Below are positions 6,539 to 9,922 of a stretch of DNA of 51,348 nucleotides, piece after piece. The position numbers and the translations under genes were made by a program. Origin of the DNA: Promethearchaeati archaeon (lineage in GTDB: Archaea; Asgardarchaeota; Heimdallarchaeia; Heimdallarchaeales; Heimdallarchaeaceae); the NCBI GenBank assembly GCA_013166775.1, contig JABLTJ010000026.1, positions 1-51,348 of the forward strand, given 5' to 3'. The notes beneath the pieces are model-generated. The model worked only from the letters and a program-made list of their open reading frames with translations, searched no databases and was not told where the DNA came from. Position 1 is the stretch's first letter; the number at the start of each line of letters is the position of its first letter.

Positions 6539-7249
6539 ATGGCATATGAGCTTTTGTATGAGATTCTATTGTTAGTAGGAGGGTACTTATTTGGTTCTAT
6601 ACCTTTTGCATATATAGTTGGCAAAATCAGTCGTGGGATCGACATAAGAGACTATGGTTCTGGAAACATGGGAGCAACTAATGTTATGAGAACATTAGGC
6701 AAAAAACTCGGGTACTTGACAATGGCTTTTGATATGCTCAAGGGTGCGATACCTGTTTTTCTAGCAAGAATCTATATTTGGTTTGGTGATTATTCCGGAT
6801 TTGGGACTAAAGCTGAAGGAACAGAATTTCCTGGATTCTTGGATGAAGGATTTCTCTTAGCTTCTGTTGCTTTTATGGCTGTAATAGGTCATGCTTTACC
6901 CGTTTGGGTTAAGTTCAAAGGAGGTAAATCCGCAGCTGTAGGGGCAGGAGCGCTCCTAGGAATCAATCCAATTGCCTATGTAGCTATTCTTCTAATATGG
7001 TTTCCACTTCTGAAAATTACAAAAATTATGTCACTCTCAAACCTAATAATGGCATTAGTATCCCCTATCATGTATTGGATTTTTGCAGGAAATGATTGGT
7101 TTTTCAACGGTAGCCTTTGGGCGTTGATTGTTGCTTGTATAATGGTGGTCTTTGTTTTCTGGCGGCATAAGGCAAATCTTAAAAGATTGCTTACTGGAAC
7201 AGAAAGGAAAATGGGAGAAAAAGTAGAAATAAAAAAGGAAGAGGAATAA
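6539..7249 (+). CDS. plsY: Acyl-phosphate:glycerol-3-phosphate O-acyltransferase PlsY
   Basis: All three PlsY motifs: 'GYLFGSIP...DIRDYGSGNMGATNVMR', 'GH...FKGGKSAA', 'RHKANLKRLLTGTE'; multi-TM. Confidence 0.93.
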   Translation: MAYELLYEILLLVGGYLFGSIPFAYIVGKISRGIDIRDYGSGNMGATNVMRTLGKKLGYLTMAFDMLKGAIPVFLARIYIWFGDYSGFGTKAEGTEFPGFLDEGFLLASVAFMAVIGHALPVWVKFKGGKSAAVGAGALLGINPIAYVAILLIWFPLLKITKIMSLSNLIMALVSPIMYWIFAGNDWFFNGSLWALIVACIMVVFVFWRHKANLKRLLTGTERKMGEKVEIKKEEE

Positions 7250-7306
7250 TCACCCCTCCTTTGCTATTCCAAAGAATATATAACAGCTTATAAGATATCT
7301 CTAGTT

Positions 7307-8851
7307 GTGAAAAACTCTTTTCGAAAGACACTAACAATTTTACTAGTTGTTATAGCTATAGGGAGTTTTGCTACTGCTGGTTATTTCTTATCGAAATTTT
7401 TTATCGAGAGAAATAATACAGATAAAGTTCAATTAATCGCAATTTCATTACCTGAAAAATTAATAAAAGGGGAATCGCTTAAATCAGTAATCCAGCTTGA
7501 AATCAGCGGTAGAAAAGGAGTTTTTATTCAGAGAGTAGAATTTGAGATTTATTCGTTAGCTTATAATCTAAATGGGAGTGTTCAATACGAGGTAAATAAA
7601 ACAACGGAGCATACTGGAAGTTACAATCTTACAGTACTCATCAATCCTTTCCTGAATACTACAACTGGGTATTTTGCCTTGAATGTTGGAGAGTATACAC
7701 TAAATTCGCTTCGGATAATTTTTGAGAAAAAAATTCCTGCAATTCAAAAAGAGATAGATTCTATTTTTCAAGTAATTAATCCAACGAGTGAAGAATTATT
7801 GGAAAATGGAGATTTTCAAAACGATTTAGTAGGATGGAATTTGCTTAAGAAAGATAATAATCTAACCAGCGAAATAATAGCACAGGAGGCATTAAACGAG
7901 AAAAGCTTCTTTGTATATAATAATCAGAATATTTCGTCTGAAAATTCTACATGGATATCTATTTCACAAACAATTAACTCTACAAATAGTCACTTCTTAT
8001 CATTTAGTCAGTATCTTGAAGGAGATAATTTTAGTATAGAGATCAATTTATTGATTAATGGAATAAAGGTGGACATGGGGGTTGTGTTAGATATTCTTTC
8101 AGAAAAAGAGCAGCTAATCTATTATGGCAATTCAACAAACATCGTAGAAATTACATTACAGATTAACTTCTTTAATGCTGAAATCGGCACTAAACTATAC
8201 CTAGATAATATATCTATTGTGAAATACGAACACAGAGTGTTCGTTGTGATGCTTAATGATAATTGGGAAATAATAGGTAATGAGATAGGAAGAAAGAATC
8301 TTTTTGAGAGTATGTTTGAAACATCCTTCTTCTTTGAGAAGTATCTTGGCATAAAATTAATTCCAATTCTGGAATTAGAATGGAAACCCCACAACACTAG
8401 CAAAGAAATAGTGGATTTGATCGCTTTAAACGATGCAGGAGAAATGTTGAAGCTACAGGACGACTGGGAAGTACTTTATGGTAGATCTTCAGAAAACCAT
8501 GGTTTCGATCTATTGCTAGCATTCTCGAATAGAACGTCAGAACATTATGGATTTGCGTACTACGAAAGAAATGCTGCTTTTCACTTTGGTCAATCAGAAG
8601 AACTAGGAGAGTATAGTTGGATTTCTATAGTTGAAGATTGGGTTGAGAATCTTATTCAACACGAAATCAGTCATAATTTTGGAGCTCACGATAGAGACAG
8701 ATCAGAATATCCACCTAGCGTAATGAGTAAACCTTCAACACCTGAACAAACAATTGCAGATTTTACAACTAACTTACTTTGGCTTCAAGTGAACAATTGG
8801 TTACGAGAAGATATCTTACTTATGCTGAAGAATAGAGCAATGTTTGATTAA
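7307..8851 (+). CDS. Membrane-anchored metzincin (reprolysin-like) metalloprotease with beta-sandwich/CBM-like domains
   Basis: N-terminal TM; 'LLENGDFQNDLVGW...YLDNISI' CBM-like jelly roll; 'HEISHNFGAHD' zinc motif followed by Met-turn 'SVMS'. Confidence 0.75.
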   Translation: MKNSFRKTLTILLVVIAIGSFATAGYFLSKFFIERNNTDKVQLIAISLPEKLIKGESLKSVIQLEISGRKGVFIQRVEFEIYSLAYNLNGSVQYEVNKTTEHTGSYNLTVLINPFLNTTTGYFALNVGEYTLNSLRIIFEKKIPAIQKEIDSIFQVINPTSEELLENGDFQNDLVGWNLLKKDNNLTSEIIAQEALNEKSFFVYNNQNISSENSTWISISQTINSTNSHFLSFSQYLEGDNFSIEINLLINGIKVDMGVVLDILSEKEQLIYYGNSTNIVEITLQINFFNAEIGTKLYLDNISIVKYEHRVFVVMLNDNWEIIGNEIGRKNLFESMFETSFFFEKYLGIKLIPILELEWKPHNTSKEIVDLIALNDAGEMLKLQDDWEVLYGRSSENHGFDLLLAFSNRTSEHYGFAYYERNAAFHFGQSEELGEYSWISIVEDWVENLIQHEISHNFGAHDRDRSEYPPSVMSKPSTPEQTIADFTTNLLWLQVNNWLREDILLMLKNRAMFD

Positions 8852-8912
8852 TTGTATTTTACAAAATAGAAAAGCTTAATTATATACGTAAAAGGGAGAT
8901 AGTGTAGAAATT

Positions 8913-8989
8913 GGCCGGATGGTCTAGCTTGGTATGGCCCTGGGTTTGGGACTCAGTGATCCCGAGTTCAAATCTCGGTCCGGCCACCA
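8913..8989 (+). tRNA. tRNA-Pro(TGG)
   Basis: GGCCGGA/TCCGGCC acceptor; CTGGG-TT TGG GA-CTCAG; GTTCAAATC; CCA. Confidence 0.96.
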
Positions 8990-9055
8990 TCTTCTCATTA
9001 TTTTTTATCTCGTTTCAGAGGATTTCTTATAAGTATCGAATTGAATTATTTGTAT

Positions 9056-9922
9056 ATGAAAATAGGTTTTGTTACAGATAGTGGTTCAGATATTGATCCA
9101 GATTATGCAGAAGAAATAGGTGTAAAGGTTGTTCCTTTGAGCATAACTTTTAGTGATGCAGATGATGTTGTACATAAGGAAAATAGAAGTTTTGATCTTG
9201 ATTCCTATTATCGGAAATATGAAACAGTTGACGATTTCTCAGCAAAAACTGCTCAACCAACCCCTAATGATTTTTTAACTACTTATGAAGAACTTACAGA
9301 AGAAGGAATAGAAGAAATAATAGTTGTAACTCTAAGTTCAGGTTTAAGTGGAACAATTAACAGCGCACGTTTGGGAGCAAATATGCTTAAAAGAAAAAAT
9401 GAGAGAATTAAGGTTCACCTTGTTGATGCATTGAATGCATCATATTCGGAGGTAATATTGATTGAGAAAGGTTTGAAATTACAAAAACAAGGTTTAAATG
9501 GCGATGAAATAGCAGAAAAATTGAGAGAACAAGCTAAATGCATCAAAACATACATACTGTTTCCTTCATTGAAATACCTGCGTAAAGGTGGGAGAATTTC
9601 AGTGACTAAATACGTTCTTGGAACTCTATTAAAGAAGAGACCAATTACAGTTGTTACTGAAGAAGGCAAAAACGAAGTAGCTACATCTGTAACTGAAACA
9701 GATGAAGGTATTCATAAAATCCTTGAATTAACTTCAGAGAATTTTACTATATTTCCAAAACAGGTTGTAATTATTCATGGTAATAATTTGGAGTATGCTG
9801 GAAGAATGGAGAAACAATTAAAACAACATTTCAAAGAGGTAAAAATAACAACAAGATGTACAGGTGTCACAATATCTGCACACACAGGACCAGATGTTGT
9901 TGCATTAATATCTGAATTCTGA
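9056..9922 (+). CDS. DegV family fatty-acid-binding protein (FakB-like)
   Basis: 'KIGFVTDSGSD', 'KTAQP', 'LSSGLSGT', 'YLRKGGRI', 'ISAHTGP' DegV signatures. Confidence 0.93.
   Translation: MKIGFVTDSGSDIDPDYAEEIGVKVVPLSITFSDADDVVHKENRSFDLDSYYRKYETVDDFSAKTAQPTPNDFLTTYEELTEEGIEEIIVVTLSSGLSGTINSARLGANMLKRKNERIKVHLVDALNASYSEVILIEKGLKLQKQGLNGDEIAEKLREQAKCIKTYILFPSLKYLRKGGRISVTKYVLGTLLKKRPITVVTEEGKNEVATSVTETDEGIHKILELTSENFTIFPKQVVIIHGNNLEYAGRMEKQLKQHFKEVKITTRCTGVTISAHTGPDVVALISEF

Follow-up and report, generated by a model that had tools for sequence, protein, structure and literature searches.

A candidate fatty acid kinase-PlsY acylation route in Heimdallarchaeaceae

Does an Asgard archaeon, a member of the group nearest to eukaryotes, attach fatty acids to glycerol phosphate by the bacterial acyl-phosphate route? 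The question is raised by a contig of a Promethearchaeati archaeon (GCA_013166775.1, JABLTJ010000026.1, positions 1 to 51,348; this whole 51,348-nucleotide stretch is referred to as the window), in which the gene of a predicted acyl-phosphate:glycerol-phosphate acyltransferase, plsY, lies upstream of a gene encoding a predicted FakB-like fatty-acid-binding protein, degV. A reading made from the letters alone (the sequence-only reading) had assigned the window to an archaeal, probably Asgard, genome and had proposed a Fak-to-PlsY route in it. The host assignment holds, as the close homologues are those of Heimdallarchaeaceae (84% identity to AB_125 in one protein), and the proposed route is supported by a full and conserved gene inventory. 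Judged from these genes, which are dispersed over the genome, a working Fak-to-PlsY route yielding acyl-glycerol-phosphate is probable. Throughout, absence means no detectable homology; the genome surveys cover Asgard archaea with a sample size that differs per gene, most of the genomes compared are incomplete bins, and related genomes were counted, so the counts are not independent.

PlsY and DegV proteins of the window

The plsY gene (6539..7249, plus strand) encodes a protein of 236 aa matching PF02660 (E 9e-54) and scoring 181.1 bits against the equivalog model TIGR00023, over the cut-off of 137.2. All three catalytic motifs noticed by the sequence-only reading are present in its translation. 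The residues binding both substrates were established by mutagenesis in Aquifex aeolicus PlsY (PDB 5XJ5, PMC5700162), and the window protein retains S35, N37, T41, R45, H92, G102, G103, K104, A107, H177 and N180, comprising the phosphate clamp (S35, R45, K104 and N180), H177 and the acyl-phosphate residues T41, H92 and N37. It thereby resembles the bacterial PlsY proteins (YgiH/YneS), from which the Heimdall system differs by three substitutions weighed below, by the lack of PlsX and PlsC and by four extra paralogues. Among the five PlsY-like genes of the genome, only the window copy has a canonical active site, the sites of the other four being degenerate. In the PlsY tree the window copy clusters weakly (82/82) with the operon copy of family f28. 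We also observed a 993-aa protein in which a degenerate PlsY-like domain is joined to a PEP-synthase/RPH/PigC-like phosphotransferase (L201:5215-8193, equal to G000:C78:59214-62195, plus strand), which from its domain make-up could be a second, self-contained unit of acyl activation and transfer.

The degV gene (9056..9922, plus strand) encodes 288 aa from its ATG at 9056, the open reading frame (ORF) scan having placed the start at a TTG at 9041. The product matches PF02645 (E 1e-63) and TIGR00762 (224 bits) and scores 136 bits against the FakB1 equivalog NF038249, below the cut-off of 350. An intact DegV on the same strand some 1.8 kb past PlsY had been described before, and we measured the gap as 1806 bases. 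The carboxylate-binding Thr, Ser, Arg173-equivalent and His are all retained. The genome holds 15 DegV genes, the window copy included (8-15 copies in the archaeal system versus 2-6 in bacteria), and the window DegV is a lineage-specific paralogue whose sister in the tree is another DegV of the same genome. One further paralogue contains an in-frame TGA (L007, G000:C107:67830-68660, minus strand), and another, at C44:51670, is very divergent and without binding residues.

A split FakA and its distribution

Full-length FakA, with its three domains on one chain of some 550 aa, was not found in the genome, nor was the FakA C-terminal domain when it was searched for. FakA, which the sequence-only reading had named as a DAK2-domain protein to look for, is present all the same, split over three contigs into two stand-alone kinases (C1:227163-227846 and C75:189244-189900, ORFs in the range of 206-227 aa) and one stand-alone middle domain of 100 aa (C65:67628-67930). 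The kinases match positions 1-196 of TIGR03599 with E values of 1e-72 and 9e-63, have S. aureus FakA as their best PDB matches and carry invariant Mg/ATP residues (N32, D38, D40, T41, N82 and D185), and the middle domain has a match in S. suis FakA (7W7H) and retains His282 and His284. Assignment of the stand-alone Dak2 genes as DhaL was rejected, because no DhaK partner was found in the genome and the motif is of the FakA type. In S. aureus, isolated FakA_N and FakA_L regain activity in trans when mixed, and FakA_C is dispensable, only bettering FakB binding (PMC9136124). Prediction of a complex of kinase and middle domain (0.47 versus 0.63 for the control) gave no answer and was not used. 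Relative to the Bacillota system (S. aureus 7RM7 and 4X9X, S. suis 7W7H, B. subtilis YloV/DegV; PMC9136124), the Heimdallarchaeaceae proteins thus share the kinase Mg/ATP residues, the middle-domain His pair and the FakB carboxylate residues, whereas their FakA is split into genes, has two kinase paralogues, has no C domain that could be found and has Asp in place of Cys240.

FakA matches occur in 30/30 other genomes of the family, split in all of them, and in Kariarchaeaceae-like families the N and middle domains are fused, without a C domain. Contiguous fakA-degV-plsY was found in 14 Heimdallarchaeia genomes, namely eight of family f28, which may be Gerdarchaeales, and all six Hodarchaeales examined. 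In two f27 genomes PlsY and FakA(NL) are joined in one protein of 585-598 aa (L134:2717-4525 and L135:6097-7854), with degV as the next gene. PlsY is also coupled genetically to the Fak route in bacteria, as PlsY-DegV fusions of Bellilinea and Thermanaerothrix (PMC5700162); the Heimdall fusion, found in f27 and not in the family of the window organism, joins PlsY to FakA(NL) instead and leaves degV separate. Outside Heimdallarchaeia, the Asgard samples gave FakA in 0/102, DegV in 0/87 and PlsY over the cut-off in 0/62 genomes. The co-occurrence in relatives that the sequence-only reading had called for is therefore found, and we regard the pathway link, as opposed to the local gene link, as strong. 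A Loki-like family also has PlsY-like genes (L407-L409), which lie in ORFs of about 400 aa and score below the cut-off; the genomes concerned lack FakA and DegV. In the FakA tree, the Heimdall proteins split from the sampled bacterial FakA with 96/95 support, on long branches and with a Bacillota-heavy outgroup taken from an alignment-based scan of named genomes that returned bacteria only; this separation fits an old acquisition.

In the mechanism we propose, a DegV paralogue would bind a fatty acid, which may be scavenged, and a stand-alone kinase (C1 or C75) acting in trans with the middle domain (C65) would convert it with ATP to acyl-phosphate. The window PlsY would then move the acyl chain onto the 1-OH of glycerol phosphate, either glycerol-1-phosphate (G1P) or glycerol-3-phosphate (G3P), to give an ester lyso-lipid, and the many DegV paralogues would set chain selectivity. 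The route would be old in Heimdallarchaeia, where other lineages keep it as an operon, and would have been scattered later in Heimdallarchaeaceae. Neither the G3P specificity nor the scavenging assumed by the sequence-only reading is established; both GlpK and G1P dehydrogenase are encoded in the genome, and PlsY enzymes of bacteria can use either G1P or G3P (PMC13400652).

Lipid inventory and competing explanations

PlsX was not found in the five genomes searched, and PlsC was found in 0/30 Heimdallarchaeaceae and 0/12 f28 genomes; of the bacterial PlsX/PlsY/PlsC pathway, the family thus shares PlsY. PlsC is present in Hodarchaeales and Kariarchaeaceae, and the two families without it are those with extra PlsY paralogues (3-5 per genome in Heimdallarchaeaceae, 4-13 in f28). 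As for the canonical archaeal ether-lipid pathway, G1P dehydrogenase (EgsA) is over the cut-off in this genome, as is GlpK, a G3P source, and polyprenyl (geranylgeranyl diphosphate, GGPP) synthase-, DGGGPS-like (UbiA, C2:104493-105440) and CarS-like genes are present below equivalog cut-offs, so that the EgsA, DGGGPS and GlpK called for by the sequence-only reading all have counterparts. What differs from that pathway is GGGP synthase (GGGPS), which was over the cut-off in 117/129 non-Heimdall Asgard genomes and in 1/83 Heimdallarchaeia, there on a probably misbinned contig. This genome, 29/30 family members (two of them closed) and a sister lineage of 12 genomes yielded no GGGPS. The one canonical copy in the family (genome G097, C45; L173/L318) sits on a 7.6-kb contig that we treated as misbinned because its genes are only 30-34% identical to the orthologues of this genome. 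The GGGPS-like proteins of Hodarchaeales, f27 and Kariarchaeaceae are divergent and retain the main motifs, and class-wide loss of GGGPS in Heimdallarchaeia was rejected because such forms persist in Hodarchaeales and Kariarchaeaceae. The latter proteins (L207-L230, L147 and L148) lie far below the cut-offs with their glycerol-phosphate motifs retained, and their divergence may reflect a substrate shift. Profiles built from the divergent forms gave no match in this genome, the rest of the family, f28 or f4.

Two Ger/PlsAR-like gene sets were also observed, one of three genes (DUF2229, HGD-D and BcrAD) directly past the sister paralogue of the window DegV (L423:1737-5868, equal to G000:C16:84737-88867, degV included) and one of two genes 3 kb from carS (L205:9904-11984); Ger homologues of Heimdallarchaeota have been published (PMC13159169). 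A DUF1295 gene lies directly upstream of the G1P dehydrogenase gene (L202:5411-6211), and DUF1295 has been reported near bacterial DegV and heliorhodopsin genes.

Several observations weigh against a working route. The catalytic Cys240 of the FakA middle domain, retained in families f2, f3, f4, f27 and f28, is Asp in Heimdallarchaeaceae and Glu in Hodarchaeales, and S. aureus FakA is crippled by C240A or C240S; this Asp is the main defect of the pathway reading. The Arg205-equivalent of DegV, which serves docking to FakA_C and the membrane, is absent from the window copy (Thr/Glu is found there), and the DegV tree puts this copy in a family-level expansion apart from the operon DegVs. Window PlsY differs from the Aquifex enzyme by S142N and, in the phosphate-hole loop G102-G103-K104-G105-V106-A107, by G105S and V106A, which are seen in 3.4% and 2% of PlsY homologues, respectively. 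Finally, as Heimdallarchaeaceae have no PlsC, it is hard to see what becomes of the lyso-lipid. The Ser142 position contacts the glycerol 2-OH; Asn there is common to the canonical PlsY copies of three Heimdall families, and this family-wide change may bear on the choice between the G1P and G3P backbones.

The genome is a metagenome bin (88.7% complete, 4.5% contaminated), which could suggest that the genes are contaminants from bacteria or arrived by recent transfer. We consider this origin ruled out, with next to no probability left to it, by orthologues that are 46-94% identical across Heimdallarchaeaceae, two closed genomes included, by conserved archaeal flanks and by the separation of Heimdall FakA from all sampled bacterial FakA; the contig is likewise native and not chimeric, as many genomes of the genus, and independent assemblies too, show the same gene order. 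It is improbable, too, that the main role of the Fak parts is catabolism or storage, in which they would capture fatty acids from lipid hydrolysis and be uncoupled from PlsY in this family after operon break-up. Hydrolase-like genes adjoining several DegV genes, the Cys240 change and the dispersal of the genes would fit such a role, whereas the absence of PlsX, which would turn acyl-phosphate into a thioester, speaks against it, as do the retention of canonical PlsY in the family and its co-distribution with FakA and DegV across Asgard archaea.

Somewhat less unlikely is an acylation outside the bulk membrane, of a minor lipid, glycolipid, amine or protein anchor, with a core of isoprenoid ethers made by a GGGPS substitute or scavenged as archaeal lipid. 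It would account for the retention of G1P dehydrogenase, GGPP synthase, DGGGPS-like UbiA and CarS and for the degenerate sites in four of the five PlsY paralogues, and since standard models nearly missed the Kariarchaeaceae and Hodarchaeales GGGPS-like proteins, a still more divergent GGGPS could exist; set against it are the complete phosphate clamp of window PlsY and the outcome of five custom GGGPS profiles, divergent forms included, whose only matches in this genome, when run unfiltered, were unrelated TIM barrels. The opposite and bolder extension of the Fak-to-PlsY route is possible but doubtful: GGGPS would have been lost, Fak-fed PlsY would take the first membrane-lipid step, and the main membrane lipids would carry fatty-acyl chains. 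The acyl-glycerol-phosphate, probably built on G1P, would then receive its 2-position chain either from the DGGGPS-like prenyltransferase, as a hybrid of acyl ester and isoprenyl ether, or from a PlsY paralogue, as a diacyl lipid, before CarS activation and perhaps reduction to the alkyl ether by the Ger/PlsAR-like enzymes.

Gene neighbourhood and meaning for the family

The linkage of plsY and degV, which the sequence-only reading had taken as its key clue, proved much less telling than the gene inventory, given the paralogue status of this DegV, an intervening tRNA gene and a synteny that fails in four other genus-level groups and in one subclade of the same genus. Directly after plsY lies a 514-aa ORF (7307..8851, plus strand) with an N-terminal hydrophobic segment and a C-terminal reprolysin-like zinc-peptidase motif (PF13582, E 2e-4), followed by tRNA-Pro(TGG) (8913..8989, plus strand) and degV, with spacers of 57, 61 and 66 bases. 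The peptidase-like ORF follows plsY in most Heimdallarchaeaceae, with synteny in three genera, and so adjoins plsY more consistently than degV does; in one closed genome it is broken into two ORFs. Between the tRNA and degV (9001..9033, plus strand), a T6 run was noted by eye and, some 26 bases ahead of the degV start codon, a TATA-like box, which suggests that degV has a transcript of its own. For 0.4% of the genes of this genome, a DegV gene begins on the same strand no more than 2 kb downstream, and the chance of a DegV neighbour for any of the five plsY-like genes is 2% on the same strand and 11% ignoring strand. In nine further genomes of the genus the degV orthologue is again found downstream of plsY, although four of the nine carry an unrelated gene ahead of degV, and no degV was found beside plsY in four genomes of the same genus or in five genomes (two closed) of three other genera. 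That the whole stretch is co-regulated, with the window DegV as dedicated carrier of the window PlsY, is accordingly unlikely: the shared strand, the short spacers, the nine genomes and the low same-strand chance favour it, but they are opposed by the tRNA, T run and TATA-like box in between, by the insertions and the genomes without an adjoining degV, and by flanking genes that are all syntenic as well. Physical proximity of plsY and degV is weak evidence for a pathway link.

Upstream of plsY, a stand-alone Lrp/AsnC ligand-binding domain of 77 aa from its ATG (6211..6441, plus strand) is conserved; its gene may be no more than a neighbour of the PlsY/Fak module. An intron-containing tRNA with the anticodon TTC (Glu) read by eye (5937..6042, minus strand) matches Rfam and was missed by ARAGORN. 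The mevalonate genes that had been offered as a hint of a hybrid membrane encode phosphomevalonate-dehydratase-like AcnX small and large subunits (25205..26802, minus strand), which we take to function as that enzyme; lying 15 kb away, they are context and add nothing specific.

Asgard PlsY and the chimeric-lipid idea have already been published (PMC6737245, PMC6431249, PMC9385802, PMC13400652), with PlsY homologues, ester or mixed lipids and G1P use as in our proposal. Those papers name no acyl donor, there being no PlsX, whereas we propose Fak. What is new is that GGGP synthase is not detected in Heimdallarchaeaceae. In the literature covered, mostly non-subscription journals, we found no paper tying Asgard genomes to FakA or DegV and no report of GGGPS loss in this family; archaeol bilayers have been inferred for the class from tes loss alone (PMC12042123).

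Among the unsolved questions of eukaryogenesis is how an archaeal host gained membranes of fatty-acid esters. The known Asgard PlsY had no acyl donor, and the class-restricted Fak-PlsY route would supply one. Eukaryotic acyltransferases are of the PlsB type, not PlsY. Together with earlier trees, in which Asgard PlsY has no special link to eukaryotes (PMC6431249), this would make the route a parallel or a stepping stone and not a direct ancestor of eukaryotic lipid synthesis. Since a Heimdallarchaeaceae enrichment exists (bioRxiv 10.1101/2025.11.06.686947) and all the proteins are small, lipid analysis and reconstitution are feasible. With GGGP synthase not detected, Heimdallarchaeaceae are predicted to be incapable of textbook archaeol synthesis, and the membrane of this family may be built partly from fatty acids.

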